Below, one piece after another: positions 3,012-19,818 of a stretch of DNA of 64,000 nucleotides (positions are counted from its first letter, which is position 1; the number at the start of each line of letters is the position of its first letter). Both the position numbers and the translations under genes were made by a program. Location of the stretch: contig NZ_ATYS01000017.1 in the NCBI RefSeq assembly GCF_000427805.1, positions 1 through 64,000 on the forward strand, written 5' to 3'. Origin of the DNA: Budvicia aquatica DSM 5075 = ATCC 35567. GTDB lineage: Bacteria; Pseudomonadota; Gammaproteobacteria; Enterobacterales; Enterobacteriaceae. The notes under the pieces were generated by a model that saw nothing but the letters and a program-made list of their open reading frames with translations, made no database searches and was not told the origin of the DNA.

Positions 3012-3662
3012 ATGACGCTCTTTTTACAAAACTGCCTAGCATTTCCAACGATCATTTTCAGCGGACTACTGATTATAGTCTTACTGTATTGGATTTCTGC
3101 TGCCTTTGGCCTTCTCGATATTGATATTCTTAATATTGATGGCGTCGATATAAATACCGACGTTGACGGCTTTGATGCCCCCGGTGTGGCCGGATTACTC
3201 ATGAAGCTGGGGCTAGCCGGTATTCCGCTGACTATTATTATCACCCTGATAACCTTAACCGGCTGGTTTCTGACCTATTTCAGCACTCACCTAATTCTTC
3301 GCTTTATCGATACTGATATTATTCGTTATCTATTAGGAACTGCCGTATTTATTCTGGCTGGCTTTGTATCAGTTTTAGTGACCTCCATGATTCTAAAGCC
3401 CCTGCGTCCTAAATTAGCTAAGTTAAATCAAGCCAAAACGGTTAAGTCACTACTTGGCCAAATCGCTGAAGTCCGCTCTCCGATTGTTACTGAACAACGG
3501 GGAGAAGCTTTATTAGCCGATGGCGGTGCGGGTTTGATTCTTCAGGTCAGAGCATCTGAAGATGCCGGTATTGTTCGCGGAAATCGCATTGTTTTAATTG
3601 CCTACGACGCTGCAACTCACAGTTACACCGTTGTTAGTGAGGCTGAATTTAACCGACTTTAA
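3012..3662 (+). CDS. yqiJ: NfeD-like inner membrane protein (YqiJ/DUF1449 family), partner of flotillin
   Basis: Several N-terminal TM helices. The C-terminal soluble OB-fold-like segment (GEALLADGGAGLILQVRA...GNRIVLIAYD) is typical of short NfeD proteins encoded upstream of SPFH genes. Confidence 0.6.
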   Translation: MTLFLQNCLAFPTIIFSGLLIIVLLYWISAAFGLLDIDILNIDGVDINTDVDGFDAPGVAGLLMKLGLAGIPLTIIITLITLTGWFLTYFSTHLILRFIDTDIIRYLLGTAVFILAGFVSVLVTSMILKPLRPKLAKLNQAKTVKSLLGQIAEVRSPIVTEQRGEALLADGGAGLILQVRASEDAGIVRGNRIVLIAYDAATHSYTVVSEAEFNRL

Positions 3663-4021
3663 TTCATTTTTCCTTTCCCTGAATAATGGATAGGACTATC
3701 TATGGATGGTGGCTTAAGAATGAATCATGGAGGAGCTAAAATGTCCCAATTCCTTTCAAACAGCCGATGTCTGTCAGCTATCTGTTCGCGTTATACATTT
3801 GCCAAGCCCCGAATTTTCTTATATCGAACATTAACAAGAAAGCAGACCACACTTTTACAAGAAATTTTTCTATATTCGAACGTGAGTATCAGGTTTAGTT
3901 AGACACACGGTTATTAGTCATACTTTTGATCGGTAATATTATCGCATTAGCACACATTAGTTGATGATTACATAAGACTTAGCGGGACAGTAATATCCCT
4001 CAATTACACGGAGAAATACTT

Positions 4022-6262
4022 ATGTCTATGGCAGATTTAATGCCGTTCTTTACCATTGTTGGCGCGGTTATCGTGTTCATTTTGGGATTTTTTGGGTTAT
4101 TCAAAGCGTTCTATATCAAGGTGCCACAGGGAACTGCGCTGATTGTCAATGACATGTCATCTCAACCTAAAGTGCATTTTACCGGCGCACTGGTTTACCC
4201 GGTCATCTACAAAAAAGAGTTTATGCGTATCTCTTTGCTGACTCTGGAAGTTGACCGCCGGGGTAAAGATGGCCTGATCTGTAAGGATAACTTACGGGCA
4301 GATATTACCGTCGCTTTCTACCTGCGGGTTAATGAAACGACTGAAGACGTATTGAAAGTCGCGAAATCTATCGGCGTTGAGCGCGCTTCTGACCATCAGG
4401 CCGTCAGCGTATTATTCAGTGCAAAATTCTCCGAAGCGCTGAAAACCGTCGGTAAACAATTTGAGTTATCTAAGCTATTTGAAGATAGACAAAATTTCCG
4501 CGATCGCATTGTCGATGTGATTGGTAAAGATCTTAACGGCTACGCGCTGGAAGACGTTGCCATTGACTACTTAGAGCAAACGCCAAAAAGCTCGCTCGAT
4601 CCAAACAATATTTTTGATTCAGAAGGTATTCGTAAAATCACTGAAATTACAGCGATTCACAATATTGAAACCAATCAAAAAGAACGCGATCAAGAGCTGG
4701 CAATCAAGAAAAAGAACGTGGAAACACGTGAAGCCAGTCTGGCACTAGAACGCCAGCAGGCCGATGCCGAAGCCCGTCAGCAGCGTGAAATTGAAACAAT
4801 TCGCGCCCGTGAAGCGGCAGAAACGTTAAAAGTAAAAGAAGAAGAGCGCCTGAAAGCAGAACAGGCGCGAATTCAGACCCAACAAGAAATTGAAATCCGG
4901 GAAGAAAACCGCCAGCGTGAAGTTGAAGTCGCTCAGCAAAACCGTACTCGTGCAGTTTCTATTGAAATTGAAAAAGTAACCCGAGCCAGAGACCTTGAAA
5001 TAGTTTCGCGCGAGCGTGAAGTTGAACTTCAACGAATAGATAAAGAAAAAGCGCTGGAAGAAGAGCGTAAAAATATTGCTAACGTGGTACGTGAACGAGT
5101 CGCGGTCGAAAAAACCGTTGCTCAGGAAGAAGAACGTATTAAAGAAGTGCGTATGGTGTCTGAAGCCGACCGCCAGAAACAAGTCACGATTATCCAGGCG
5201 CAGGCCGATGCGGAACAAGACTTAGTCCGTCAGGTTAAACAAGCCGAAGCCGATGAGAACAGCGCTAAGCACAAAGCCTTAGAAATTAGCACCATGGCAC
5301 AGGCAGAGTTAGAAGCAGCCGCCAAGCAGGCCGAGTCGAAAAAACGCATGGCTGAAGGCGTTGAGGCTGAACAGGCCGCTCTGGGTCTGGCAGATGCGCG
5401 TGTACGTCAAGCACAGGCTGAAGCTGAAGAGAAAGAAGGTTTAGTTCAGGCTAACGTTACCGCTGAAAAACTGTTGGCAGAAGCCCGCGGTGAGCAAGAG
5501 AAAGGATTAGCCCGCGCCCGTATTCTGGAAGCTCAGGCAGCGGCAGAAGAGAAACAGGGCCTTGCCGAAGCCCGGGTTCTGGAAGAGAAGCTAACGGCTC
5601 AGGCCCGCGGTGACGAACAACAGGCACTGGCTAACGAAAAACAAGGCCTGGTTGATGCTCACGTATTAGAAGAAAAACTGGCGGCTCAGGCTCGAGGTGA
5701 AGGTCAGTTAGGTGCTGCGCAGGCGGAAGTTGTTCGTCAGCGTCTGAAAGCCGAAGCTGATGGCCTGACTGATAAGTTTACCGCTATGGGGAATCTTAAT
5801 ACCACAGCCCGCGAGCACGAAGAGTTCCGTATGCAACTGGAAAAACACTTCGAGCAAAGCATGGCCTCTATCTCTGCAAATAAAGAGATTGCCAGAGAAC
5901 AGGCAGACGTTCTGGCCGCCGCGCTCAGCAAAACGAATATCGACATTGTTGGCGGCGACGGTAGCTTCTTTAATACCTTCTCTAAAGCCCTTAGCGTCGG
6001 TAAAGCCATTAATGGCGTGGTAGAAAAGAGCCCGGTGGTACAGGATGTGGTACAGAAACTGATGGGAGCAGGTAAAGATGGCCAAAAACTGGATATCGAA
6101 GCCCTTTTACAGAATCCGGAAGTATTGGCGCTGATTCAGCAACTGACATCAGCACCGAAACCATCTGCACCACCGGCTTCGCCAGCGCTGCCACTCGCAG
6201 CACCGGTACCGCCAGCACCAGCACCAGCACCAGCACCAGCACCAAGCATGACTGAAGACTAA
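4022..6262 (+). CDS. yqiK: SPFH/band-7 flotillin-like protein (YqiK family) with extended coiled coil and C-terminal Pro-Ala repeat
   Basis: N-terminal TM segment followed by an SPFH domain. Long E/A/R/Q-rich coiled coil with internal AQARGE repeats. C-terminal (PA)n tail. At 746 aa it is longer than E. coli YqiK (553 aa). Confidence 0.8.
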   Translation: MSMADLMPFFTIVGAVIVFILGFFGLFKAFYIKVPQGTALIVNDMSSQPKVHFTGALVYPVIYKKEFMRISLLTLEVDRRGKDGLICKDNLRADITVAFYLRVNETTEDVLKVAKSIGVERASDHQAVSVLFSAKFSEALKTVGKQFELSKLFEDRQNFRDRIVDVIGKDLNGYALEDVAIDYLEQTPKSSLDPNNIFDSEGIRKITEITAIHNIETNQKERDQELAIKKKNVETREASLALERQQADAEARQQREIETIRAREAAETLKVKEEERLKAEQARIQTQQEIEIREENRQREVEVAQQNRTRAVSIEIEKVTRARDLEIVSREREVELQRIDKEKALEEERKNIANVVRERVAVEKTVAQEEERIKEVRMVSEADRQKQVTIIQAQADAEQDLVRQVKQAEADENSAKHKALEISTMAQAELEAAAKQAESKKRMAEGVEAEQAALGLADARVRQAQAEAEEKEGLVQANVTAEKLLAEARGEQEKGLARARILEAQAAAEEKQGLAEARVLEEKLTAQARGDEQQALANEKQGLVDAHVLEEKLAAQARGEGQLGAAQAEVVRQRLKAEADGLTDKFTAMGNLNTTAREHEEFRMQLEKHFEQSMASISANKEIAREQADVLAAALSKTNIDIVGGDGSFFNTFSKALSVGKAINGVVEKSPVVQDVVQKLMGAGKDGQKLDIEALLQNPEVLALIQQLTSAPKPSAPPASPALPLAAPVPPAPAPAPAPAPSMTED

Positions 6263-6270
6263 TATCCGGC

Positions 6271-6314
6271 GGGCCATCCGTGCAATTGCATTCGATGGCC
6301 CGTTTCTTTTTATT
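6271..6314 (+). terminator. Rho-independent terminator after yqiK-like gene
   Basis: Stem GGGCCATC...GATGGCCC followed by a TTTCTTTTTATTT run. Confidence 0.7.
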
Positions 6315-6452
6315 TAACACATTGTATTTACTAAGATAAGTTCACCCAGAAATAGTGCAGTATCAGGTCAACGGTAAATTTATCTTAGTTAATTTCTCTG
6401 AAAAATCATTATCAGAGTCAGCACGGCTAAAAAATATAATTTTATCAAGGAA

Positions 6453-9400
6453 ATGTTAAACGCCATGTCAGATAACCAAGACAATAATCGCGAACAGGAA
6501 TTACTGGATAACGCCGTTGCAGAAGGCGGTGCCTACGATATTTTACGTAAACGCTTATCTGAACAGGGCCAACAACTCCACGAAAAAGCGAAACAGCTAA
6601 ACGGTCGCCGTCTGGAAGAGTTCGGCAAAAGCCAGATGGACATCATTGGCCGTATCCGTATTCGTACTGAAAATAACTGCGTTGCGCGAGATATTGTCCG
6701 CGTCGGTGAGTGGCTGCTGTTTGGCTATAACGTTTTTATTGGCTTGAAAAAAGAGACGCGCATAGAAGATGTCTTCTCTCTTTATCGCCTGACTGAAAAT
6801 GAGGGCGAATACGACGTTGAACCCGTTGCTTTAACCGGCACCTTCCTGAACATCAACAGCTTTGTTCAGGACTTTAACGAGCTCTACACTTACTATAAGA
6901 ATACCCAGTTACTTCAACTTGTTGAACGTGAAGGAAAACTGCTGGCCAGTTTCCAAATCGGCGAGAGAATTACCGACGTCAGGGTTTTCCGCTGGTCAAT
7001 ATCAAGCGATAAAACTGAAATTAAATATATCGACAACCGCGGTGAACGGGATATCGCCCTGCCTCCGGCCTATGACTTTGAGTGGCATAAAACCACCCGT
7101 GAGAATGCGGTCAATGGCCGCTACTCTCATATGAATATTCTGGATACGGTATTCGTCGAAACGATTGGCGGTGACCTGACGATTAAGTGTGAAAACAACA
7201 CCGAAGACGGCTTGGGAATCTATCGGGAAGCGGTATTAGATAAAACCCAATCTCTGGATGATGCGCAGATTGAATATGCTCAGGCCGGCCCCCTGATTTT
7301 GCTAAAAATATTGCCTTATCGGGAAGAGTCCTGGCGCTATCTGGTTTATAACACCTTATCTCAAACAGCTATGCGTATTGATGCCATAGGGCTGGCCTGT
7401 ATTCAGCTACCGGAAGACCACGGCATTATCTTCCCGGGCGGTTACTATTTACAAAACGGCGAGTATAAGACCTTTGACCAGCCGATGGATGGCATGCGTT
7501 TTCGCCGAATTCGTCGTTCACCAAACGGTGAAGACGTATTATATATTTTCTATGAGCCTAACTTTGGCCGTTTAGCCCTGTTTAACTACAACATGATTGA
7601 ACGTAAGCTACACAATCCGTTGTTTGGCCATGGCTATGCCATGCTGGAAGATGGCCGAATGGTGCTGTTTGAAGGCCAATCGAATGAACCTACCCGTATT
7701 CATCCAATGCAGGTTTGGCAAACGCCCTACTACTCAGATGAATATGCCGCCCTTCAGCCGGCAAAAAATAGCTTTTTTGGCCGAATTGGTAATGCCGAAC
7801 TGGTTCGGGGAATTTCTGACCTCTACCACATCGCCAGAGAGATAGAGCAACAGCAAATATCATCTCAGCTTTATGAAAAACTCAGTCAGGATGCACGCCG
7901 ACTGATCGATATCTACTATTGGCTCAATGATGAGCAGAGCCTGCACGCATCCATCTTACTAAAAGAAATATCGCAAACCGGCGAACTGGTACTGGATGAA
8001 TACGAAAAAGTTGAGAGTATCCGCCGCCAGTCCGAACGGGCAATGAGTGAAGCAACATCTCGCCAAAAACAGCTAATTTTATCCTTATTACCGGACAGCT
8101 GGAGTAACGCTCAGCAGTTTGTTGACGCACTCAATGAGCTTAATGTCCACCGCGGGCAGCTCATCACCCTGCGGGATTATCGCTATATTGACTTAGACCG
8201 ACTCGATGAGATGGAACAACAGCTCACCGAGAGTCAACAAAGAATCTCACTCGCCACGGCTGACTTTTTGGCCAGCGATAAAGCCCTGCTGCCTTTTACT
8301 CAGCAGCTTCAGTCACTGGAAAAGCAGACTCAGGAAGCGACGAATAACGTCCAGCTTAACGAGCCCTTAGCCGGCATGGAAAAAATGTCTGCGGATTTAG
8401 ACATGCTTTCCAATCTGATGGCCTCATTGAAGTTCGAAGATACCATTCAACAAACTCATATTATTGAATCAATATCTGAGATCTATGCCAGATTAAATCA
8501 GGCCCGAGCCCGTTTACAACAGCGCCGCAAAGAGCAAGGTTCAGTAGAGTCTATTGCTCAATTCGGTGCTCAATTTAAGCTATTTAGTCAGGGGATTACT
8601 AACGCCTTAACGCTGGCCAGCGATCCTGAGCGTTGCGATGAGCAGCTTTCCCGTTTACTGGTTCAGTTAGAAGAGTTGGAAAGCCAGTTCAGCGAGCAGG
8701 AAGAGTTTTTAAACGATATTCTAAGTAAACGAGAAGAGTTACTTGAAACGTTTGAAAGCCATAAGCAATCCCTGCTGGATGAGCGCCAACGTAAATCACA
8801 AAATCTGACCGTTGCCGCTGACCGACTGCTCGACAGCCTTCAACGCAGAACCGCTCGATTTAACACCCTTGATGAGCTCAATGCCTTTTTCGCCTCTGAC
8901 CCGCTATCGATTAAAACTCGTGAAATTATTGAACGACTGCGCGGGCTAAAAGACAGCGTCAAAGCCGATGATATTGATGCCAAATTTAAAGCCGCCCGGG
9001 ATCAGGCTATCCGCAGCTTAAGGGATAAATCCGAAATATATGAAGACGGTGGCAACGTCATTAAGCTCGGCCCTCGCCATAGGTTTAGCGTTAATACACA
9101 GGAACTGGATCTCACTATTTTACCTCGCGGGGAACAGCTTTATTTGCATTTAACCGGTACCGATTATCAGGAACCCATTGAAAGTGATGAGCTGGAAACG
9201 CTAAAAGAGTATTGGCAGATCTCGATTGAATCTGAATCACCTGAAGTCTACCGGGGTGAATATCTCGCCTACTCTCTGATTTATGCCGCCAGTAAAGAGC
9301 AAGATGGTCTCACTCTGGACAAACTGATCTCCCTACTCCATGAGCCGGAAGCGCTGGAAAAAACCGTTCGTGATTTTGCCTCACCTCGTTATAAAGAGGG

Positions 9401-11402
9401 ATATGAGAAAGGCATTCACGATCACGATGCCGTTGCCATTCTACAAAAATTAATTCCCGTTGGTGAAAGCGCAGACTTACTGCGTTTTAATCCTTTAGCC
9501 AGAAGCATTGCCGTATTGTTCTGGCAGCATATCCAGAAAGAACCGCTGCCTTCCCTCTGGCCCGAGCGTGCCCGGACCAGCATGAATATTTATCAGCTAT
9601 TTCGTAGCGATGCCGGGCTACAGGATTTACAGGCTGAAATCGAAGCAGACCTAAGCCTGTTTTTGTCTCAGTTCCCCATCGCCTGTCAGCCCTATCAGCA
9701 GGCTCAGGCGGCAGAGTATCTCAGTCTGGCGCTGGGCTGTTCGCCAATTGAATTCAGCTTTAGTAAGTATGCTCGTACCCTGTTCGATAGCCTACAAACT
9801 CAGTTAGAAAAAGCCCATATGTGGGGCGACTTTAATCGTTCTCAACAAAATTTAGGCGATCGTCTGGCACAGCGCTGGCTGCTGGTAGAAAACTGGTTAA
9901 CCGGTATGTGTTCACTTCCTGAGTTTTCAGCGCTGGCAACTTATATACCCGAAGCCGTTGCACTGACACTATTAGATAATCGTGTTGCTGCGCGCTTCAG
10001 CGAAGTAGATTTACACTTTACGGTCACTCAGCTAATGGGTGAACATCCGCGAATTCAGGACAGAGCATTAACCCTGAGCCTGGATGATTATTTTGGCCGT
10101 ATGCGCAAACACCGGAAAGTGTTTATTCCAGCCTACCACCGATATCAGGAACTCAGACAAAACGTTTTAAATCAGCAGCGCAAGAACCTTCGTCTGCATG
10201 AATTTAAGGCCCGCCCGCTAAGTTCTTTCGTGCGTAATAAACTGATTAACGACGTATACCTGCCGATTATCGGTGACAACATGGCTAAACAGATTGGTGC
10301 TCTGGGTGAAGGAAAACGAACCGACCTGATGGGCCTGCTGCTAATGATTTCACCACCGGGGTACGGAAAGACCACCCTGATGGAATATATTGCTAACCGC
10401 CTGGGTCTGATTTTTATGAAAATTAATGGCCCGGCTTTAGGCCATGACGTTCTTTCATTAGATCCTGAACAGGCACCCAATGCTACCGCCCGGCAAGAGC
10501 TGGAGAAGCTGAATCTGGCGTTAGAAATGGGAAATAACGTGATGTTGTATGTGGATGATATCCAGCATACTAACCCTGAGTTCCTACAGAAATTTATTTC
10601 ACTGTGTGACGGTACCCGCCGCATTGAAGGGGTATGGAAAGGCAAAACAAAAACCTACGATATGCGCGGTAAAAAATTCTGCGTTGTCATGGCCGGTAAC
10701 CCTTATACCGAATCCGGTGACGTATTCCGCATTCCTGATATGTTAGCCAACCGAGCCGATATCTATAACTTAGGTGAAGTTCTGGGCGGCATGGAGGAAG
10801 CCTTTGCGCTGAGCTACATTGAAAATAGCCTGACCTCTAACCCGGTCTTAGCGCCGCTAGCCCTACGGGATATGAATGACCTTTATCAGTTTGTCGATAA
10901 AGCAATGGGTAAACCTTTCTCAAATAATAACTTAAGCTATAACTATAGCGACGCAGAAATCAATGAAATCGTTGCCGTGATTGAACGCATTATCATCATG
11001 CGTGATACCGTGCTGAAAGTGAACCAACAGTACATTGCCAGCGCGGCTCAGTCCGACAAGTACCGCACGGAGCCAAGCTTTAAGCTACAGGGTAGCTATC
11101 GCAATATGAATAAGCTCAGTGAGAAAATATCTTCCGTGATGAACCCGGCCGAAGTCCGGCGAATTCTCGACGATCACTACTTAGGTGAAGCCCAACTGCT
11201 AACTCACGGTGCAGAGGAAAACTTACTTAAATTAGCTGAAATTCGCGACTTGATGTCGCCAACTGAAGAAACTCGCTGGCAGCAAATAAAGCATGACTTT
11301 ATGCGCAATAAGGCACTCGGCGGTGATAATGCCGAGGTCGGAGATCGGGTGGTTGCGCAGCTTGCTGATTTAGTTGAAAGCGTTCAGGCCTTGGGTAAAT
11401 AA
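6453..11402 (+). CDS. Giant (1649 aa) soluble coiled-coil protein with C-terminal AAA+ (MoxR/AAA_5-like) ATPase domain; function unknown
   Basis: Uninterrupted 4.9 kb ORF. Walker A is PPGYGKTTL and Walker B is VMLYVDDIQ. Sensor-1-like VVMAGNP and an Arg-rich segment lie in the last ~350 aa. Long Q/E/L-rich predicted coiled-coil stretches occupy the middle. No TM segments. The start may instead be the ATG at 6465 (MSDNQ...). Confidence 0.75.
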   Translation: MLNAMSDNQDNNREQELLDNAVAEGGAYDILRKRLSEQGQQLHEKAKQLNGRRLEEFGKSQMDIIGRIRIRTENNCVARDIVRVGEWLLFGYNVFIGLKKETRIEDVFSLYRLTENEGEYDVEPVALTGTFLNINSFVQDFNELYTYYKNTQLLQLVEREGKLLASFQIGERITDVRVFRWSISSDKTEIKYIDNRGERDIALPPAYDFEWHKTTRENAVNGRYSHMNILDTVFVETIGGDLTIKCENNTEDGLGIYREAVLDKTQSLDDAQIEYAQAGPLILLKILPYREESWRYLVYNTLSQTAMRIDAIGLACIQLPEDHGIIFPGGYYLQNGEYKTFDQPMDGMRFRRIRRSPNGEDVLYIFYEPNFGRLALFNYNMIERKLHNPLFGHGYAMLEDGRMVLFEGQSNEPTRIHPMQVWQTPYYSDEYAALQPAKNSFFGRIGNAELVRGISDLYHIAREIEQQQISSQLYEKLSQDARRLIDIYYWLNDEQSLHASILLKEISQTGELVLDEYEKVESIRRQSERAMSEATSRQKQLILSLLPDSWSNAQQFVDALNELNVHRGQLITLRDYRYIDLDRLDEMEQQLTESQQRISLATADFLASDKALLPFTQQLQSLEKQTQEATNNVQLNEPLAGMEKMSADLDMLSNLMASLKFEDTIQQTHIIESISEIYARLNQARARLQQRRKEQGSVESIAQFGAQFKLFSQGITNALTLASDPERCDEQLSRLLVQLEELESQFSEQEEFLNDILSKREELLETFESHKQSLLDERQRKSQNLTVAADRLLDSLQRRTARFNTLDELNAFFASDPLSIKTREIIERLRGLKDSVKADDIDAKFKAARDQAIRSLRDKSEIYEDGGNVIKLGPRHRFSVNTQELDLTILPRGEQLYLHLTGTDYQEPIESDELETLKEYWQISIESESPEVYRGEYLAYSLIYAASKEQDGLTLDKLISLLHEPEALEKTVRDFASPRYKEGYEKGIHDHDAVAILQKLIPVGESADLLRFNPLARSIAVLFWQHIQKEPLPSLWPERARTSMNIYQLFRSDAGLQDLQAEIEADLSLFLSQFPIACQPYQQAQAAEYLSLALGCSPIEFSFSKYARTLFDSLQTQLEKAHMWGDFNRSQQNLGDRLAQRWLLVENWLTGMCSLPEFSALATYIPEAVALTLLDNRVAARFSEVDLHFTVTQLMGEHPRIQDRALTLSLDDYFGRMRKHRKVFIPAYHRYQELRQNVLNQQRKNLRLHEFKARPLSSFVRNKLINDVYLPIIGDNMAKQIGALGEGKRTDLMGLLLMISPPGYGKTTLMEYIANRLGLIFMKINGPALGHDVLSLDPEQAPNATARQELEKLNLALEMGNNVMLYVDDIQHTNPEFLQKFISLCDGTRRIEGVWKGKTKTYDMRGKKFCVVMAGNPYTESGDVFRIPDMLANRADIYNLGEVLGGMEEAFALSYIENSLTSNPVLAPLALRDMNDLYQFVDKAMGKPFSNNNLSYNYSDAEINEIVAVIERIIIMRDTVLKVNQQYIASAAQSDKYRTEPSFKLQGSYRNMNKLSEKISSVMNPAEVRRILDDHYLGEAQLLTHGAEENLLKLAEIRDLMSPTEETRWQQIKHDFMRNKALGGDNAEVGDRVVAQLADLVESVQALGK

Positions 11403-11407
11403 CCTTA

Positions 11408-11974
11408 ATGAAAGCGTGGATAAAACAACGAGTCTGGATTCTAAGCATACTGACTACCGTGCTAATTATTATACAGTGTATAAATTCAGTTACCGGTGAT
11501 GCTTTAAATAATTTCGGCATACTTCCCCGAACCACTCGGGGACTGGTCGGTATATTATGCGCCCCTTGGCTGCACAGTAACTGGGAGCATTTATTCAGTA
11601 ACTTACCAATATTACTGATCTTAAGTGCGTTATTAATTAGCCAGTCTGTCCGCGATTATATTAAGTCTAGTATTTTTATTATTCTATTCAGCGGCCTTTT
11701 GGTTTGGATTTTTGCCCGTACCGCCATTCATATTGGCGCCAGCGGATGGATTTTCGGACTATGGGCTCTACTACTAGCCAGAGCATTTACCCAGCGTAGC
11801 CTGCTGGATTTTATCTTTGCCGCAGTGGTCTTCATCTATTACGGTGGCATAACATCAGGAATGATACCGGGAACACCCGGTATCTCTTTTGAAGCGCATA
11901 TTGCAGGTGTTATCGCCGGCTTAAGTTATGCTCTGCTAACTCGGAAAAAGCCCCGGATAGAAGTAAGTCCGTAG
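11408..11974 (+). CDS. Rhomboid-family intramembrane serine protease (short 6-TM form)
   Basis: Six hydrophobic helices. Motifs present: HxxxN (HLFSN), GxSG (GASG) and AHxxG (AHIAG). The start codon lies 5 nt after the stop of the giant ATPase gene. Confidence 0.6.
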   Translation: MKAWIKQRVWILSILTTVLIIIQCINSVTGDALNNFGILPRTTRGLVGILCAPWLHSNWEHLFSNLPILLILSALLISQSVRDYIKSSIFIILFSGLLVWIFARTAIHIGASGWIFGLWALLLARAFTQRSLLDFIFAAVVFIYYGGITSGMIPGTPGISFEAHIAGVIAGLSYALLTRKKPRIEVSP

Positions 11975-12255
11975 CGCGGCTAATACGTTTCAAATTTATT
12001 TTATTTAAATGCAAAAGAGTATTTTTTCGAATTAAAACCTATTAATTCCAATAAATGCCGTCATAAAGACTGGATGATATATTACAGCCCTATTTTTAGT
12101 ATTAAATGCTTTATTTTGGCTTGCGATTAAAGCAAACTACCTTAAAAGAGACGGGTATAACGTTAACAAGATATTAACGATGGAAATACTCTGTTCCAGA
12201 TCAAAGAATATATATCGCTGACTTCTGATTATTTGAATTTTGATATTTTTATTTT

Positions 12256-12954
12256 ATGGATAACGTGGATATGGATAATGCTGCACTGGAAGATTATCTA
12301 AAAACAACGCTTGCTGATTTATCATTAAGTCAGTCTGAACGTAATCAACTTCGTGAGCTAGGGCAAACATTAAATCTGGAACAGTCCAGCTTTATGCGTA
12401 ATCGCGCATTTGATTTAGTGAGAGCTCAATTAACATCAGCCCCTGAGGACCTCCAGCCAACATTAAAATGGCTGGAGCTTGTGATCAAAACTCTCGATAT
12501 CAGCAGCATCCAACCCAAAATTAATTCCGCCGCCTATTTCTCCCCGGGTGAAGCCTGCCGGGAGAAAATTCGTTCAATGCTGGCTCAGAGCCGTCAGAAA
12601 GCAGACATCTGTGTTTTCACCATCGCAGATGATGTGCTTACAGAAGCGATTCTAAATGCCCACCAACGAAACGTTCAAATAAGAATAATTACTGATAACG
12701 ATAAATCAGAAGACAGCGGTAGCGATATTGAATATCTGCAAAATAAAGGTATCGCCATCGCGATGGATAATAGCCCATATCATATGCACCATAAGTTCGC
12801 GCTTTTCGATAATAGTTTTCTGCTCAACGGCAGTTTTAACTGGACGCGGAGCGCTTCTCAGCAAAATCAAGAGAACGTGTTAGTAACTGACGATATAACA
12901 TTACTCACCGCCTACCAAAAAGAATTTAATAAACTATGGACGCAGTTTAACTAA
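12256..12954 (+). CDS. Phospholipase D-family (single HKD, Nuc-like) nuclease/phosphodiesterase, cytoplasmic
   Basis: Canonical HxKx4Dx6GSxN motif (HHKFALFDNSFLLNGSFNWTRSA). No signal peptide. The gene is low-GC relative to its neighbours and has an AT-rich upstream region. Confidence 0.7.
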   Translation: MDNVDMDNAALEDYLKTTLADLSLSQSERNQLRELGQTLNLEQSSFMRNRAFDLVRAQLTSAPEDLQPTLKWLELVIKTLDISSIQPKINSAAYFSPGEACREKIRSMLAQSRQKADICVFTIADDVLTEAILNAHQRNVQIRIITDNDKSEDSGSDIEYLQNKGIAIAMDNSPYHMHHKFALFDNSFLLNGSFNWTRSASQQNQENVLVTDDITLLTAYQKEFNKLWTQFN

Positions 12955-13147
12955 TGGAAAATTTCATATTAATGCTGGCTATGGAGGTAAAAAAATCGAA
13001 GACTGCATTTAAGTTTACCGCTAAAGAAAAGGTAGATATACTCCCCGCACAAGGAAGTTTCACTCTACGCAAAGATTGCATAAAGTTCCCTCATTTCGTC
13101 GCGCCCTCTATGCAATTCCGTTACTTTCTCTACAAAACAGAATAAAT

Positions 13148-14518
13148 ATGAATAATAAAATAAAACGAATAACTCTTTGTTTTAGTATTGCGCTAACGTT
13201 GGCGGCCTGTTCTAACCCGCCTTCACGCAAAAACTATGATTATGCACTTTCGCAAGGACAGATTGAACTCGCTCAAAAAATAGCATTAGAAGAAGGCGTC
13301 GCACCGGGTACTGATACCGCGACTGAACTTCTTTGGTCTCTTGAAGCGGGTGCCGTATTACGTATGGCAGATCAGGTAGATCGCTCAACCAAAGTTCTTG
13401 ATGGCAGTGAGTTATTGATTAAAGACAACGAAACGCAAAATCTGGCGTCCTCTGGGCTTAGTCAAGCTGCATCAATGATTGTTAATGATAACGTGATGAG
13501 CTACACCCCGCGTGTATACGATCGGGTTATGGTTAACACTTATAAAGCATTAAACTTCTGGCAACAGGCTAACTTTAGCGATGCTCGCGTAGAATGGAAC
13601 CGGGTTGACGATCGTCAACGTCGTGCTGCGGAATATTTCTCTAAAGAAATTAATGCTCAAAAATCAGAAGTTAAAAGTAATAAAATCGGCGACAGTTACT
13701 CTCAGTCAATGGAAGCCCTTGAAGGATCAGGTATTGATGTATCTAAATGGGCACCTTATGATGGTTACATTAACCCGGCATCCCTGTATTTGCATGGCCT
13801 GTACTTCTTAATTAACAGCGAAAGTGCGGCTGATTACACCAAAGCAAAAGAGAGTCTAAAACGCGCTTACGCACTGACTCGCAGCAACCAAATTCGTGCT
13901 GATATTGCACTCGCTAATAAAGGCCGTACCGTTGCTCCCGGCGTTTGGGTTATTTTTGAGAATGGTCTGGCAGCCAGAAAAACTGAACGGCGTATTGATT
14001 TACCTCTGATTCTGGTTACAAAAAGCGTGGCCTATACCGGTATGGCTTTGCCCGTTCTGGAATCAGGTAGCCCGGCTTACCCTTACCTTTCGGTAAATGG
14101 CTCTCAAAAAACCGAGTCGTTTGCCAGTATGGATAAGATCATTGAGGGTGAGTTTAAGACTGAGTTTACCGGCATTTTGATCAAAGAGATCTCTCGGGCC
14201 ATCTTAAAAACCGCGGCTCAGGCGACGATGATGAATTCGGATAACAGCACGGTTAAGCTTATCGGCGCATTAACCGGTATTGCACAAGCCGTCAGTACAC
14301 AGGCTGATATTCGTAGCTGGCATGCTTTACCTTATGATTTCCAGGTTGCTTACGTTAAGTGGCCGAAAAGCGGACAAATTCAAATTAGTCCACCTGGAGG
14401 CGAAGCAATTAACGTTGATTTACCCGCAACGCCTCAACCCGTTGTCGTTTATGTGCGAGTGCTGAACGCTGGTTCTGCTCCACAAGTTAGCGTACTAACC
14501 AGTAAAAATGCGATGTAA
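13148..14518 (+). CDS. Predicted envelope lipoprotein (456 aa), function unknown
   Basis: Lipobox LTLAAC after a short basic N-terminus. The start was reassigned to the internal ATG at 13148; the ORF-track start lies further upstream. Confidence 0.55.
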   Translation: MNNKIKRITLCFSIALTLAACSNPPSRKNYDYALSQGQIELAQKIALEEGVAPGTDTATELLWSLEAGAVLRMADQVDRSTKVLDGSELLIKDNETQNLASSGLSQAASMIVNDNVMSYTPRVYDRVMVNTYKALNFWQQANFSDARVEWNRVDDRQRRAAEYFSKEINAQKSEVKSNKIGDSYSQSMEALEGSGIDVSKWAPYDGYINPASLYLHGLYFLINSESAADYTKAKESLKRAYALTRSNQIRADIALANKGRTVAPGVWVIFENGLAARKTERRIDLPLILVTKSVAYTGMALPVLESGSPAYPYLSVNGSQKTESFASMDKIIEGEFKTEFTGILIKEISRAILKTAAQATMMNSDNSTVKLIGALTGIAQAVSTQADIRSWHALPYDFQVAYVKWPKSGQIQISPPGGEAINVDLPATPQPVVVYVRVLNAGSAPQVSVLTSKNAM

Positions 14519-14575
14519 TGGACTATATCCAAAACGCATCGTGCTGAACTTTTAAACTGTATTGAGAGCTTTATA

Positions 14576-15190
14576 ATGAATATTTTTAATAGAAAAACAT
14601 TTCTTGCCGCTGCAGTAGCGCTGTCTTTAGCTGGCTGTGCACAGGAAGGTGCTTATTACGTAGATAGTTCTTCTGATAATGTTGCCGTTATGGGCCTGGA
14701 CTATAAAGACTTCGAAATGGCTGCTTCTAGCATGGTTGAAGATATGCTGAGCTCAGACTTACTGGTTCACCCACAGGGCGGCCGTTATGTTTTAACCGTT
14801 ACCGGCATCGTCAATGATACTGACCAACGTATCGATACCGACCAGTTAACTAAAAAAATCCGTACCAGCCTGTTAAATTCCGGTCGTTTTGTTGTGACTA
14901 CCGCAATTAGTGCCAACGGCCCGGAAGACGAGATGACGCGTAAAGTTCGTCAATTGCGTAACTCTAAAATGGTTAACCAAAAAACAGTTAAGAAAGATGG
15001 CCGCGTAATTGCCCCAGACTTCTCATTAACGGGTAAAATCATTCAGCAAAACCAACGTGTGAATTCAAAAACACAGCAAGTTGAATACTATTTCCAGTTA
15101 ACGTTAACCAATTTGGATGACGGTTTAGCCTATTGGGAAAAAGAGTATCCAATCATCAAGCGTGGCGACAATCGCACTGCAAGTTGGTAA
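14576..15190 (+). CDS. Predicted lipoprotein (204 aa), LpoB-like/TolB-N-like fold suggested
   Basis: Lipobox LSLAGC. The V/T-rich beta pattern (YVLTVTGIVNDTD...RFVVTT) resembles LpoB/CsgG-like modules. Confidence 0.5.
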   Translation: MNIFNRKTFLAAAVALSLAGCAQEGAYYVDSSSDNVAVMGLDYKDFEMAASSMVEDMLSSDLLVHPQGGRYVLTVTGIVNDTDQRIDTDQLTKKIRTSLLNSGRFVVTTAISANGPEDEMTRKVRQLRNSKMVNQKTVKKDGRVIAPDFSLTGKIIQQNQRVNSKTQQVEYYFQLTLTNLDDGLAYWEKEYPIIKRGDNRTASW

Positions 15191-15268
15191 GGTCGGCGTT
15201 GCACCGTATGCCTGTTTAATCAACATACGGTGCGATTTATATTATTTTTACCCATTAGGGCTTTCTTA

Positions 15269-16639
15269 ATGAAAAAATGGATATTGGTACTAGTAGGTCT
15301 TTTGGCAGTTTCACCTGCAGTGTATGCAAAAATTGAAACTGTTGATGCTCAGGGATATGGCGAGACCTACGAAAAAGCGGTTGATGCTGCTTTGGCTGAT
15401 GCCGTTCGTCAGGTTAACGGAATGACCGTAAGTACTCAGTCAGAACGCGCTGGTGATTATGTTCGGGTTAAAGACAAATCTGATGCCACAATTGAAGGAA
15501 AAGGCACCTACGTTCAAGATACTAAGAACAAAGATGACTCTTTTCTAGGCAACAAAGGTGTAGACAGTACGCTGACCGAGAATTTAGATGTGAATGTTGG
15601 TGGTAACGCTAACCGTGACTTAACCGTAAACACCGGTAAAAGTGCACAAATTAACACTCGCAGCTCCGGTACGGTAAAGGGTTATAAAGTTAAATCCCGT
15701 GACTGTGACCCAAAAGGATGTACCGTTCTCCTGAGCGTTGATATTGATAAAGTTGAGCGTAAAACCTCTCAGGCTAATTCTAAACGCGATCGCCTGGCGG
15801 TCATTACTACCGGTAACCGCAGTCGTTCAGCCTTTGCTAATCAGCTCCGCCAAGAAATCACTGACCGTATCGTTCAGTCGCAGCGTTTCACCGTATTAGA
15901 CCGCAGCACAACCAACGATAAAGCCTTCGAACAGGAAGAAGCCTTCTTGGAAGGTCGCCTGAATAATTCGGTTGATATCAAGCAAGCTGCCCTTCCGGCT
16001 GATTACCTATTGGTTATCAACGTGACGGAAGCGGGTGTTAATACTAAGACTAAAGTGACCAGCGTTGACTTAACCGGTGAATTTGACGTAACCCGCACCA
16101 GCAAAACTAAAGTGACCGTGCGTTATTCCCTGCTTGAAGCGGCCACTCACGGCATTCAATGGTCTGACTCTAGTGTATTTGAGCAAGGTGGCCGTTATTT
16201 AGAAACCGCCCGCCAACAAATCAGCGACGTTATTGCCGATAAAATTGTCAACAAACTGACTCCGGCGAAAGTCGTCAGCGTTTCTAACGGTCAAGTCATT
16301 ATTAACCGTGGTGAAGCAATGACCTACTTAGGCGACCGTTTTGATATTTATTCTCAAGGCGAGGAGCTGATAGACCCTGATACGGGTGAAACCTTAGGCG
16401 CAACAGAAGAAAAAGTAGCGACTATTGCTATCGATAGTGTTAAAGACAAAATCTCTTATGGCATTGTTGAAAGCGGAAAAATTGAGTCTATCGAAAAAGG
16501 CGCAATTGCCCGACTGGCTCCACCTCTGCCGGTAGAGAAAAAAGCGACCGATAAAAAGGTGACTAAGACCAAAACAACGCCAAAACCTAAAGCTGATGCA
16601 CAGAAGCTGGGTGATTCTGGCGGCGTTTTCCTTAAATAG
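15269..16639 (+). CDS. Secreted periplasmic/outer-membrane-associated protein with C-terminal CsgG-like domain
   Basis: Sec signal MKKWILVLVGLLAVSPAVYA. The central region has a CsgG/LPP20-like pattern (RLAVITTGN...RFTVLDRS...ADYLLVINVTEAG). K/T-rich C-terminal tail. Start taken at the internal ATG at 15269. Confidence 0.5.
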   Translation: MKKWILVLVGLLAVSPAVYAKIETVDAQGYGETYEKAVDAALADAVRQVNGMTVSTQSERAGDYVRVKDKSDATIEGKGTYVQDTKNKDDSFLGNKGVDSTLTENLDVNVGGNANRDLTVNTGKSAQINTRSSGTVKGYKVKSRDCDPKGCTVLLSVDIDKVERKTSQANSKRDRLAVITTGNRSRSAFANQLRQEITDRIVQSQRFTVLDRSTTNDKAFEQEEAFLEGRLNNSVDIKQAALPADYLLVINVTEAGVNTKTKVTSVDLTGEFDVTRTSKTKVTVRYSLLEAATHGIQWSDSSVFEQGGRYLETARQQISDVIADKIVNKLTPAKVVSVSNGQVIINRGEAMTYLGDRFDIYSQGEELIDPDTGETLGATEEKVATIAIDSVKDKISYGIVESGKIESIEKGAIARLAPPLPVEKKATDKKVTKTKTTPKPKADAQKLGDSGGVFLK

Positions 16640-16932: not shown

Positions 16933-18099
16933 ATGGAGCAAGATATGTTTAATTTTGATTACTATAATCCAACCCGCATTATCTTTGGCAGCCATCGAAT
17001 TAAAGATCTCGATGCACAAATTCCGGCCAATGCCCGAGTTCTTGTCACCTATGGCGGCGGAAGTGCTAAAAAGCACGGCACAATGGATGAAGTTATTCAG
17101 GCTTTAGGTTCACGTAAATATATCGAATTTGGCGGTATAGAGCCGAACCCTCACTATGACACCTTGATGAAGGCAGTCGAGATCGTTAAAACCGAGCAGA
17201 TAGATTATCTGATTGCCGTTGGTGGCGGTTCCGTCATTGATGGTACGAAATTTATTGCTGCCGCGGTGTATTTCGAAGGCGACGCTTGGCAAGCTTGGAT
17301 TGGCAGTACGCCAATTAAAAAAGCCTTACCGGTAGGTTGTGTACTGACCTTGCCAGCAACCGGTTCTGAAATGAACGGAACTTCGGTTATCTCTAATACC
17401 GCATTGAATGCCAAGCTCAGTAACAAGAACCCGCTGCTATTCCCTCAGTTTGCTATATTAGATCCAAGAAAGTCATATACTTTACCGCCACATCAAACGG
17501 CTAATGGCGTTGTCGATGCTTTTATCCATGTGGTAGAACAATATCTGACTTATCCGGTTTACGGTAAAGTTCAAGACCGATACGCCGAAGGCCTAATGCT
17601 CACATTGATCGAAGAAGGCCCTAAAGCGCTGGTAGAGCCTGAAAATTATGACGTCAGAGCAGCTATCATGTGGAGTGCCACTCAGGCCCTCAATGGCCTT
17701 ATAGGCGTCGGTGTTCCGCAAGACTGGTCTTCTCATCGGATGGGATATTACTTCACTATTTACCATGGATTAGACCATGCCCAAACGTTGGCTATTATTC
17801 TGCCGGCAGTTCTTGAAATTCAAAAAGAGTCTAAGCGTCTGAAGCTTCTTCAATATGCAGAACGTGTCTGGGGCTTAACTGATGGTAGCGAAGAACAGCG
17901 AATTAACCATGCAATAAGCCTGACCAGAACGTTTTTTGAGGATATGGGTATTCCGACTTACCTCAGGGCATATGGTATTCCTGAATCATCTATTGATGAA
18001 GCCATTATCTATTTAGAGAAATTTAATTTGTTACCATTAGGTGAACATAAAGATATAGGTGTAATAGAAGTACGAAAAATTCTAAGTTTGAGTTACTAA
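16933..18099 (+). CDS. yqhD: NADPH-dependent aldehyde reductase, Fe-containing alcohol dehydrogenase family (YqhD)
   Basis: Near-collinear with E. coli YqhD (GGGSV.DGTKFIAAA, VLTLPATGSE, HGLDHAQTLAI). The start could instead be the ATG at 16945 (MFNFDY). Confidence 0.85.
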   Translation: MEQDMFNFDYYNPTRIIFGSHRIKDLDAQIPANARVLVTYGGGSAKKHGTMDEVIQALGSRKYIEFGGIEPNPHYDTLMKAVEIVKTEQIDYLIAVGGGSVIDGTKFIAAAVYFEGDAWQAWIGSTPIKKALPVGCVLTLPATGSEMNGTSVISNTALNAKLSNKNPLLFPQFAILDPRKSYTLPPHQTANGVVDAFIHVVEQYLTYPVYGKVQDRYAEGLMLTLIEEGPKALVEPENYDVRAAIMWSATQALNGLIGVGVPQDWSSHRMGYYFTIYHGLDHAQTLAIILPAVLEIQKESKRLKLLQYAERVWGLTDGSEEQRINHAISLTRTFFEDMGIPTYLRAYGIPESSIDEAIIYLEKFNLLPLGEHKDIGVIEVRKILSLSY

Positions 18100-18308
18100 A
18101 ATCAGCCGACAGGACAGAATAACGTTATAAAGACTTGTTCATTTCCTGTCGGCATACTATGATAGTGTTATCACTCGGCTATGCTACTGCTCACAACCCT
18201 GTGTTATATAATCTCCAGATATATTACCACCAGCTGTAACATTTAATTAATGATGTACATGGCCGATCTGGATTCACCTTCCAATTAAATCTATTAAAGT
18301 AAAAAATA

Positions 18309-18521
18309 ATGAGCGATATTGATTATTTAATGATGTTCCGCAAATGTTCAAATCATGACAGTTTAGAGCGCCTATATGACAAACTAAACTATTCTTTAGT
18401 TGATAATAATATTCTTGCCAATATGTATCGTGCTGCCGACCATCGGCGTGCAGAGCTAGTCGCAGGTAAACTGTTCGACTTAGGTAAAGTTCCTAAATCT
18501 CTTTGGTCTCAGGTTAAATAG
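18309..18521 (+). CDS. cnu: Hha/YmoA-family nucleoid-associated protein, closest to Cnu/YdgT
   Basis: DYLMMFRKC...[29 protein letters not shown] matches the YdgT/Cnu signature. No tomB-like gene lies upstream. Confidence 0.75.
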
Positions 18522-19478
18522 TTCTATATTTACAACTAAAGCTAATGATAAACACATTGTGTTTACCCTTTGTTTTTAGATAGTTATATAAAACCTGATG
18601 CTAAACTGTAAACATTAGACACACTGTCATGTGGTTTTTTACTAATTTGCCCTGCTGTTTGTTTTTTATGCCATTTACTTCATATGTATCATCGTTATTT
18701 AGATATGACTCTCATGTAATAATAGCTATCTCTTAAGGTAGCTATTAGCATTGAGAAACAAATAAAATATTTCTTAATATACCCACTTTGATTTTACGTA
18801 TATTTAATACGGGGTATAAAATTAATCTAAAATTGCACCAAATCAAAGAATAAGGGACTTAATCTGATAAGCACATCAAACGGTCCAACCAAATAAATTA
18901 ACAATTAAAACCAATAAAAAATGAGCTAATAAAGTTTTTAAGCGCAGTATATAGTCAATAATATGAAACAAACTATTCATATATAGTTTGTTTCCACTTG
19001 CGTTTTGTCCAGCTAACACTAACACGCTCTGTTTATCATATATAAACAATGCCGGTTCCGGTTCAGCCCCGAATCCTTGAGTCTGATTATGACAAAATGT
19101 TAATAATTATTTATTTCCATATTTTTCAATAAGTAATCTAATATCATTTAATACCGCAAGGTCCAATTTCTTCAATCTGATTAAAACACAAAAACCTAAC
19201 CACCTTGTTAACCCTTAAAATCTTTAATATTCATCAATATGATGGCTGCTGTCGCAAATTTTATAGATTCAGTGATATTACTCAGCTAGACGCTGCCAGC
19301 AGGAACATCTGAGCAGTTGGCTGGTTAAAAATCGACTCTGATGGCTAGATAAACAAACACGCCCCTACTCTTAACTAAGATCGCCCCAACAGAGCAGACA
19401 AGTAACCCCAAACGCAGGTTAACAACACACCAATTTGCTCAGTTGGTGAACACTCAGGTTAAAGATAACAATTTAGCG

Positions 19479-19507
19479 TTGACAGTCTATGAGTAGCTAG
19501 ATATGAT
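19479..19507 (+). promoter_or_regulatory. Sigma70 promoter of tRNA-Asn copy 1 (TTGACA, 17 nt spacer, TATGAT, GC-rich discriminator)
   Basis: The -35 TTGACA is at 19479-19484 and the -10 TATGAT at 19502-19507. A GC-rich stretch (gattcgcccc) follows before the tRNA. Confidence 0.6.
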
Positions 19508-19525
19508 TCGCCCCGTTCAAACGAT

Positions 19526-19601
19526 TCCTCTGTAGTTCAGTCGGTAGAACGGCGGACTGTTAATCCGTATGTCACTGGTTCGAGTCCAGTCAGAGGAGCC
19601 A
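19526..19601 (+). tRNA. asn tRNA: tRNA-Asn (anticodon GTT)
   Basis: 76 nt, identical in sequence to enterobacterial tRNA-Asn (TCCTCTGTAGTTCAGTCGGTAGAACGGCGGACTGTTAATCCG...GGAGCCA). Encoded CCA. Confidence 0.95.
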
Positions 19602-19653
19602 TATATAGTTTTATGACGTTTAGATGAGTCTAAGCAAGTCATAAAATAGAGTT

Positions 19654-19688
19654 AAAAAAACCAGAGAATAAACCCTCTGGTTTTTTTA
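19654..19688 (+). terminator. Rho-independent terminator after tRNA-Asn copy 1
   Basis: AAAAAAACCAGAG..CTCTGGTTTTTTT. Confidence 0.7.
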
Positions 19689-19818
19689 CGTCTGCAGCAT
19701 TTGCCAACTCACTTATATAAGCTTAATTCATCGATATTGATATACAGCCCGATTCAGAGGGTTGGCTTATCGATACCCTAATCTGGGCTAGGCACAAAAC
19801 CTATACTGACTCAGAGCA

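Follow-up and report, generated by a model that had tools for sequence, protein, structure and literature searches.

Introduction

In Pseudomonas aeruginosa PA14, six genes, bacABCDEF (PA14_16140 to PA14_16200), form an operon that was recovered from bacA to bacF as a single transcript by reverse transcription PCR and for which a sigma-54 promoter has been proposed (PMC10948618). By position, bacABCDEF corresponds to PA3732 to PA3727 and matches genes 1-6 of the P. paraeruginosa locus used for comparison below (L024). Ravi et al. (2024) noted a phospholipase D (PLD) hydrolase in an operon of CesT/Tir-PspA, band-7/flotillin, novel AAA+ and YqiJ/YuaF genes, and recognised 'abbreviated operons' as a variant of it (PMC11237479). 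PA3728-PA3732 were up-regulated in all phage-infected P. aeruginosa samples of a further study (PMC12041424). Here we describe a PLD-family gene (12256..12954, forward strand) in a 64,000-nucleotide stretch of Budvicia aquatica DSM 5075 = ATCC 35567 (NZ_ATYS01000017.1, positions 1 to 64,000), called the window below. With high confidence, we identify it as the Budvicia orthologue of bacF, which encodes the PLD component of the PspA/flotillin/giant AAA+ ATPase envelope-stress operon.

BacF is a described family, known by its gene neighbourhood and co-transcription only. A literature search for 'DUF3686', a domain of the giant ATPase, returned no papers. An eLife paper on the Arc pathway was set aside as irrelevant, PA3729 being only a background co-immunoprecipitated protein there. 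The gene had previously been interpreted, in a reading of the sequence without database searches (the original prediction), as a horizontally acquired nuclease gene without an obvious partner, and defence systems had been suggested as a context for it.

Results

A highly probable bacF orthologue in Budvicia

The open reading frame (ORF) at 12256..12954 encodes a single-HKD PLD-family product that matched the Pfam PLDc_2 profile with 101.7 bits (cutoff 27, E = 3.5e-29) over model positions 2-132 of 132. The protein was 52-54% identical to the BacF-position proteins of Pseudomonas over 97-98% of its length, with the N-terminal domain included. P. aeruginosa BacF (PA14_16200) has the same build, a four-helix N-terminal domain followed by one HKD PLD domain within 227-230 aa, and the same position, right after the DUF3686/AAA+ ATPase and flotillin-like genes. 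The Budvicia locus differs from the P. aeruginosa operon in that BacA (DUF2170/CesT-like) and BacB (PspA) are lacking, a rhomboid gene and a 281-bp AT-rich spacer precede bacF, and no sigma-54 site was found.

A length of 232 aa had been given for the protein. The ORF itself was confirmed, but translation most likely starts at the ATG at 12271 and yields 227 aa, because homologues are usually 226-230 aa long and because the upstream ATG of Limnobaculum does not share the reading frame of the second, whereas the second ATG and the codons that follow it are conserved. In the 227-aa numbering, a family-specific acidic four-helix bundle would occupy residues 1-84 (12271..12522, forward strand), and the catalytic PLD domain, which gives the PLDc_2 match and includes the single HKD motif and the stop codon, would extend over 12523..12954 (forward strand). 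The canonical motif HxKx4Dx6GSxN, as first reported, occurs exactly once, as H173-H-K175-FALF-D180-NSFLLN-G187-S188-F-N190 (nt 12787-12840), and H173, K175, D180, G187, S188 and N190 were invariant across 64 homologues. The cytoplasmic location that had been assumed for the protein is plausible because no signal peptide or transmembrane stretch was visible in BacF, the N-terminus being an acidic helix without a hydrophobic signal sequence.

bacF closes a flotillin-like/AAA+ ATPase cassette in many genomes

The gene neighbourhood of bacF was surveyed with one genome per species. At least 588 loci with relatives were obtained and the best 80 were analysed, with neighbours counted by tblastn of the window's neighbouring proteins against each locus. 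The PLD gene lay directly downstream of a flotillin-like gene and a DUF3686/AAA+ ATPase gene in 58 of these 80 loci. The gene that had seemed to lack a partner is the conserved last member of a flotillin-like/DUF3686-AAA+/(rhomboid) cassette. The linked loci came from Budviciaceae, many genera of the Pseudomonas group, Lysobacteraceae, Oceanospirillales, Cellvibrionaceae, Corallincola and Oceanimonas. A rhomboid gene stood between the ATPase and PLD genes in 30 of the 58 linked loci (L001-L015, L017-L022, L026-L029, L038, L043, L062, L071 and L078) and was missing from the other 28; the word 'rhomboid' appears nowhere in Ravi et al. 2024 (PMC11237479), though the gene is present in about half of the linked loci.

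In the P. paraeruginosa locus, the gene order was DUF2170, PspA_IM30, a 213-aa membrane protein, a 688-aa flotillin-like protein, a 1,746-aa DUF3686/DUF7902/AAA protein, the PLD protein, a 225-aa gene and recJ. In the Pseudomonas loci (L003-L035), a PA3726-like gene and recJ follow the PLD gene beyond position 10681. The pair stands directly after bacF in L024 and L008, and 1.3-6 kb of variable DNA lies between in most other species.

A second arrangement was found in three divergent PLD loci of Bacteroidota type, one of them named Cryomorphaceae and two metagenomic (L081, 9226-10684; L083, 9214-10693; L085, 9214-10675). In all three, a gene for an XRE-type helix-turn-helix regulator immediately precedes the PLD gene, with an 8-nt gene overlap in L081 and L085, and the regulator-PLD pair divergently adjoins a run of CesT, PspA, 215-aa, ~726-aa and DUF3686 ATPase genes. 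The regulator of L085 has a weak Peptidase_S24 match, and a superfamily 1 helicase gene (AAA_11/AAA_12) follows the PLD gene there. Linkage to the same machine in a second arrangement, outside the Proteobacteria, therefore points to a functional connection, and we regard this genomic pattern as strong evidence that the PLD protein is connected to the flotillin/DUF3686-ATPase machine.

The catalytic domain is closest to MitoPLD/Zucchini

The closest solved relative of the PLD domain was human PLD6 (9lkx; E = 1.3e-29, 42% identity over 116-135 aa). Mouse PLD6/MitoPLD (4ggj) matched with E = 3e-26, and the sequence matches to bacterial Nuc (2e-10) and NucT (1e-7) were far weaker than those to PLD6. 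An AlphaFold2 model of BacF based on 64 homologues reached a mean predicted local distance difference test score (pLDDT) of 90 and placed four N-terminal helices before a PLD fold. Foldseek with this model ranked mZuc, NucT, Nuc and fly Zuc first; the match to mZuc (4ggk) had E = 1.4e-12 and a template modelling score, TM(target), of 0.78, and that to Nuc (1byr) a TM(target) of 0.85. The Nuc/Zucchini-type single-HKD class assigned by the original prediction was thus borne out, with PLD6/MitoPLD nearest by sequence and mZuc, NucT and Nuc nearest by Foldseek. With all HKD-motif residues invariant and the Zuc/Nuc/NucT fold modelled, BacF is predicted to be catalytically competent.

BacF resembles MitoPLD/PLD6/Zucchini, a single-HKD enzyme of the mitochondrial surface in eukaryotes (4ggj, 4gel, 9lkx), in this 42% identity, in a single HKD motif that is expected to require dimerisation and, by prediction, in work at or next to a membrane. 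It differs in having a soluble acidic four-helix bundle (residues 1-84) in place of an N-terminal transmembrane anchor, and in being the product of a bacterial operon unconnected with piRNA biology. K145, D148 and D152, invariant in BacF homologues, are specific to BacF, PLD6 having Y, L and Q at the aligned positions. With Nuc (pKM101/Salmonella, 1byr) and NucT (Helicobacter, 6ehi), BacF shares the fold and the HKD chemistry. Nuc and NucT are secreted or periplasmic proteins of ~155-180 aa and are plasmid- or competence-associated, whereas BacF is chromosomal, probably cytoplasmic and equipped with the N-terminal domain. The best NucT NCBIfam score for BacF was 54.5 bits against a cutoff of 211.

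The family was counted by an exhaustive phmmer search in which the PLD domain was the sole query; in representatives at 50% clustering, 13,095 scored E <= 1e-3 and 338 scored E <= 1e-30. Among the 150 best representatives, 77 have the BacF N-terminal domain by a strict profile, and many of the others have a divergent helical N-terminus that shares an 'LSxxEkxxL' signature. Close relatives of the catalytic domain were found fused to two KH domains (P0306, 50% identity), to helix-hairpin-helix (P0194) and to a weak CCCH finger (P0182). The best-scoring PLD relatives outside BacF (P0306, P0194, P0182 and P0183-P0193) are tandem-PLD or fusion proteins, and some of them start with MG(N/G)C, which is suggestive of eukaryotic acylation. 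These tandem-PLD and fusion proteins are probably of microbial-eukaryote origin and belong to protist Zucchini-like families.

The N-terminal domain is a conserved family-specific module

The N-terminal extension had been described as ~100 aa without a recognisable motif. Pfam and NCBIfam scans of this region indeed returned no match, but it measures ~85 aa, is strongly conserved and is predicted to form a four-helix bundle (pLDDT 86 when modelled alone). An alignment of 17 sequences (A4) contained 19 invariant positions, and 12 positions stayed invariant over 64 full-length homologues, L10, L19, E23, L27, R43, N44, F47, R51, W67, L68 and E69 among them. The domain is acidic, with a median isoelectric point (pI) of 4.9. 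A search of its profile against 5.8 billion proteins returned it only in truncated BacF fragments. As far as its sequence tells, the domain is a family-specific module in which no catalytic or membrane-binding signature is recognisable; we infer that it serves docking.

Composition and synteny argue against a horizontally acquired defence nuclease

The gene and its upstream region had been called markedly AT-rich and, on that ground, horizontally acquired. The description fits the spacer and not the gene. The 1-kb bin 12001-13000 has a GC content of 0.377, driven by the spacer at 11975-12255, which with a GC content of 0.28 is near the bottom of the values for the other 26 intergenic regions of the window (0.27-0.42) without falling outside them. 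The bacF coding sequence has a GC content of 0.420 and a third-position GC content (GC3) of 0.408; 45 genes of the window average 0.450±0.030 and 0.433±0.048, which gives z = -1.0 and -0.5. With a Karlin codon bias of 0.324 versus other genes, bacF ranks 15 of 43 and is mid-range among genes of 190-260 codons. The composition of bacF carries no signal of foreign origin.

Orthologues of bacF were present in all sampled genera of Budviciaceae. Synteny between the window and the loci of Limnobaculum and Pragia extends over the entire locus, flanking genes and downstream lipoprotein cluster included; the alcohol dehydrogenase gene is also kept at the Limnobaculum locus. A tblastn search of 50,697 phage records found no full-length BacF type, and in 72,556 plasmids full-length BacF occurred on only two replicons, of 1.7-2.1 Mb, in Photobacterium and Vibrio. 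About 1,800 other plasmid matches, on mostly conjugative plasmids, covered the PLD domain only, at up to ~35% identity, and those listed carry the annotation 'phospholipase D family protein'. The P. aeruginosa BacF cluster comprised 399 member sequences, and single members were seen on as many as 1,000 contigs or more; bacF looks like a core gene in that species. Ordinary composition, syntenic flanks and absence from phages and true plasmids indicate that bacF has been inherited vertically. Ordinary GC content and codon usage, together with orthologues at the same locus in relatives, had been named beforehand as marks of a housekeeping gene, and in essence this pattern was observed.

It is very improbable that bacF is a stand-alone PLD nuclease of foreign origin, an anti-phage effector or toxin of the DrmC/MkoB kind that lies beside the ATPase gene by chance or forms a new two-gene system with it. 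PLD nucleases are genuine defence effectors elsewhere. PADLOC models for MkoC (6e-10), DrmC (5e-8), MkoB (6e-8) and DpdK (8e-7) matched the PLD domain, and the AT-rich spacer upstream of bacF and the induction of the Pseudomonas operon on phage infection (PMC12041424) also fit such a role. The NCBIfam scores, however, stayed 4-5-fold below their cutoffs (DrmC_I, 26.8 bits against 133; DpdK, 28.8 against 100), and PADLOC matched neither the flotillin-like protein nor the rhomboid, while for the ATPase it gave just a weak P-loop match (mad8, 3e-4). The ordinary coding composition, the synteny in Limnobaculum and Pragia, the orthologues throughout the sampled Budviciaceae genera, the core-like distribution in P. 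aeruginosa with a cluster on more than 1,000 contigs, the lack of full-length copies on any phage or true plasmid and the ordinary metabolic and envelope functions of neighbouring window genes all speak against it as well. DISARM DrmC, Mokosh MkoB/MkoC and Dpd DpdK share the PLDc_2 domain with BacF, but their family thresholds were far from reached and their defining partner genes are absent from the bacF locus. Membership in DISARM, Mokosh or Dpd was rejected: the PADLOC and NCBIfam matches are sub-threshold and at domain level, and partner genes were not found. The suggested defence effector and its horizontal origin are largely refuted by composition and synteny.

The window holds an abbreviated bac cassette

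Upstream of bacF, all on the forward strand, lie four genes of the cassette. The first (3012..3662) encodes a BacC-like small polytopic membrane protein of YqiJ/YuaF type with three transmembrane segments, 42% identical to the third bac gene product of P. paraeruginosa and 70-72% identical to the products of the same-position genes of Limnobaculum and Pragia. It had no match in Pfam, and its class was assigned after Ravi et al. 2024. The second (4022..6262) encodes BacD, 746 aa, with a transmembrane segment, an SPFH/flotillin-like region and a long coiled coil; BacD is PA3729 by position, 73% identical to the fourth protein of the P. paraeruginosa locus and 92-93% identical to those of Limnobaculum and Pragia. 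Ravi et al. and the orthology to PA3729 are the grounds for its flotillin label, as Pfam, even at E <= 10, and a PDB sequence search gave no match. The C-terminus of BacD is a Pro/Ala-rich tail (APKPSAPPASPALPLAAPVPPAPAPAPAPAPS).

The third gene (6453..11402) encodes BacE, 1,649 aa, in which Pfam recognised DUF3686 (E = 1.6e-202), DUF7902 (2.6e-26) and a C-terminal classical AAA+ ATPase module (AAA/AAA_5, about 1e-5). The AAA module is nearest to the p97/Cdc48 D1 P-loop region, and the protein is 67% identical to its P. paraeruginosa orthologue. The rhomboid gene (11408..11974) begins 5 nt past the ATPase stop codon and encodes a minimal six-transmembrane rhomboid intramembrane serine protease of 188 aa (Pfam Rhomboid, E = 3.4e-20). 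H56/H61/N65 (HxxxxHxxxN), G110-x-S112-G113 (GxSG) and H164 were invariant or >=93% conserved across 31 orthologues. BacD, with its single transmembrane segment, or the polytopic BacC would be candidate substrates of this protease. No homologue of BacA (DUF2170/CesT) or BacB (PspA) was found in the window or at the Limnobaculum and Pragia loci, and by gene content the window has an abbreviated form, bacC-bacD-bacE-rhomboid-bacF, that lacks the CesT/PspA dyad.

The spacers of the Budvicia cassette are unusually long and AT-rich (3663-4021, 359 bp; 6263-6452, 190 bp; 11975-12270, 281-296 bp). The last of these (11975..12270, GC 0.28-0.29) contains a block at 12108-12139 that is conserved among Budviciaceae; aligned with Limnobaculum and Pragia, it reads CTTTATTTT..ATTA..GCAAACTA and may be a regulatory site. 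The same spacer held one weak sigma-70-like match, at 12163-12190, fewer promoter-like sites than its shuffles and no Rfam family, and a search of all four cassette spacers for a sigma-54 -24/-12 element found none. Among the terminator-like hairpins of the region, the strongest (11863-11884; a 9-bp stem with 6 GC pairs and a T-rich tail) is located within the rhomboid gene, near its 3' end and ~90 nt upstream of its stop codon. Most Pseudomonas-group loci (L003-L028) have no such spacer, and where they carry the rhomboid gene (for example L003 and L015) the rhomboid match stops <= ~60 nt before the start of the PLD gene.

Other genes nearby are ordinary: amidase, NAD-dependent epimerase-like, LpoB, iron-containing alcohol dehydrogenase (Fe-ADH), GGDEF-EAL, a phosphotransferase system component and serine dehydratase. 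Downstream of bacF, at 13076-16639, stands a cluster of three lipoprotein genes, syntenic with Limnobaculum and Pragia, for a 456-480-aa protein, an LpoB-family protein (TIGR02722, 160 bits) and a 456-469-aa protein; the two large proteins had no Pfam or NCBIfam match. Between the Fe-ADH and Cache-GGDEF-EAL genes, 1.7 kb (18100-19818) contains no ORF >=100 aa, and the bin 18001-19000 has the lowest GC content of the window, 0.31.

Discussion

The identification of bacF is the firm part of our interpretation. Taken as a whole, the best explanation joins this identity to a docked, membrane-recruited nucleic-acid phosphodiesterase, and to that combination we give an even chance. As in Nuc and Zucchini, one active site would be built from two BacF monomers, each of which contributes its single HKD half. 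Through its acidic N-terminal domain the homodimer would dock onto the assembly of flotillin and BacE on the cytoplasmic side of the inner membrane, and under envelope stress the recruited enzyme would cleave a phosphodiester substrate.

As that substrate we tentatively favour single-stranded nucleic acid, RNA or DNA, with confidence a little short of even. It is preferred by analogy because the relatives of BacF are nucleases, because close catalytic-domain relatives are fused to KH and helix-hairpin-helix domains, because no lipid-binding feature was recognised and because flotillins organise RNases. To our knowledge, the close relatives that have been characterised (Zuc, mZuc, Nuc and NucT) are all nucleases in vitro, and the sequence of BacF offers no membrane-binding element of its own. 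The flotillin link concerns membrane-associated RNases (PMC7492731). BacF would then have parallels in Zucchini, which is anchored in a membrane, and in RNases scaffolded by flotillins.

A rather unlikely alternative, though the most substantial one, is that BacF is a MitoPLD-like lipid phosphodiesterase that is recruited to flotillin microdomains and produces phosphatidic acid there from cardiolipin or a different anionic phospholipid; local curvature or fluidity would then be altered so that PspA, flotillin and BacE could repair or remodel the stressed inner membrane. In 2006, Choi et al. reportedly found that MitoPLD makes phosphatidic acid from cardiolipin, whereas the crystallographic studies of Zucchini and mZuc are said to have detected cleavage of single-stranded RNA in vitro but no hydrolysis of cardiolipin. 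The closest solved relative was named 'mitochondrial cardiolipin hydrolase' by its depositors, and the operon partners are all membrane proteins or membrane remodellers (PspA, SPFH/flotillin, the YqiJ-type protein with three transmembrane segments and the rhomboid). The proposal of Ravi et al. that flotillins of this operon mark cardiolipin-rich membrane subdomains (PMC11237479) favours a lipid substrate, and induction by envelope or phage stress (PMC12041424) fits one. BacF, however, has no transmembrane segment or amphipathic basic surface, its N-terminal domain, at pI 4.9, should be repelled by anionic membranes, and the domains fused to its close catalytic relatives bind nucleic acids and not lipids. 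Isoelectric point and charge were also tried as a means of telling nuclease from lipase and were set aside as uninformative.

It is improbable that the substrate is some other phosphodiester, such as a nucleotide second messenger, polyphosphate or an adduct of protein with nucleic acid or lipid, or that BacF serves mainly as a regulatory subunit of BacE. Members of the PLD superfamily, Tdp1, polyphosphate kinase and PLD3/4 among them, carry out varied chemistry. The invariant K145, D148 and D152 in place of the Y, L and Q of PLD6, the translational coupling of the PLD gene to an XRE-type regulator, not to structural genes, in Bacteroidota-type loci, and weak PP_kinase_C_1 similarities in one relative are consistent with such a role. 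Nothing positive speaks for any particular alternative of this kind, however, and the HKD set is fully conserved, which speaks against a role without any catalysis.

Several observations weigh against the docked nucleic-acid phosphodiesterase that we prefer. The PLD gene stood in unrelated, non-conserved neighbourhoods in 22 of the 80 loci, so physical coupling is not obligatory; all-against-all clustering of the neighbours in these 22 loci yielded no alternative conserved partner. The proteins encoded beside BacF are all membrane-associated, BacE being linked to membrane proteins, and a lipid substrate fits this at least as well as a nucleic acid does. With a median pI of 6.1 and a net charge of -3, the PLD domain is slightly acidic, unlike typical basic nucleases, and the residues at positions 145, 148 and 152 suggest that substrate specificity may differ from that of Zucchini. 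With the 281-bp spacer, the weak sigma-70-like site and the hairpin at 11863-11884, co-transcription of bacF with bacE and the rhomboid gene in Budvicia is putative. From the literature, the bac papers do not discuss the domain or function of BacF (PMC10948618), and the report of phage induction of PA3728-PA3732 omits PA3727 (PMC12041424).

The combination of SPFH, rhomboid and AAA+ proteins in one membrane module recalls the mitochondrial SLP2-PARL-YME1L (SPY) complex, in which an SPFH scaffold, a rhomboid protease and an AAA+ protein act in membrane quality control. The likeness is one of analogy and of shared superfamilies, with no membership claimed, and BacE is not an FtsH/YME1L protease. 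A further idea, which we consider distinctly improbable, is that BacF-type enzymes are the bacterial sister group or source of MitoPLD/Zucchini and act as the catalytic effector of an SPFH, AAA+ and rhomboid membrane-surveillance machine, cutting RNA, DNA or cardiolipin. If that were true, the machine would be a bacterial counterpart of mitochondrial membrane quality control that responds to membrane damage or phage entry, and a bacterial substrate could help settle the debate over lipid versus RNA as the target of PLD6.

The outcome for the Budvicia gene is mainly corrective: bacF is not a horizontally acquired orphan defence nuclease, and the original prediction, right on the enzyme class, was wrong on origin, isolation and defence-system affinity. 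The BacF family is widespread and genetically welded to the PspA/flotillin/giant AAA+ envelope-stress system, which phage infection induces in Pseudomonas and which has effects there on biofilm formation, rhamnolipid secretion and virulence. The interest of the family lies in its substrate, in its kinship to MitoPLD/Zucchini and in the combination of SPFH, AAA+, rhomboid and PLD proteins. With 42% catalytic-domain identity to human PLD6, BacF is a tractable model for the dispute over the activity of MitoPLD/Zucchini, and, as BacF is the system's only obvious catalytic effector, its substrate would reveal the activity of the machine.

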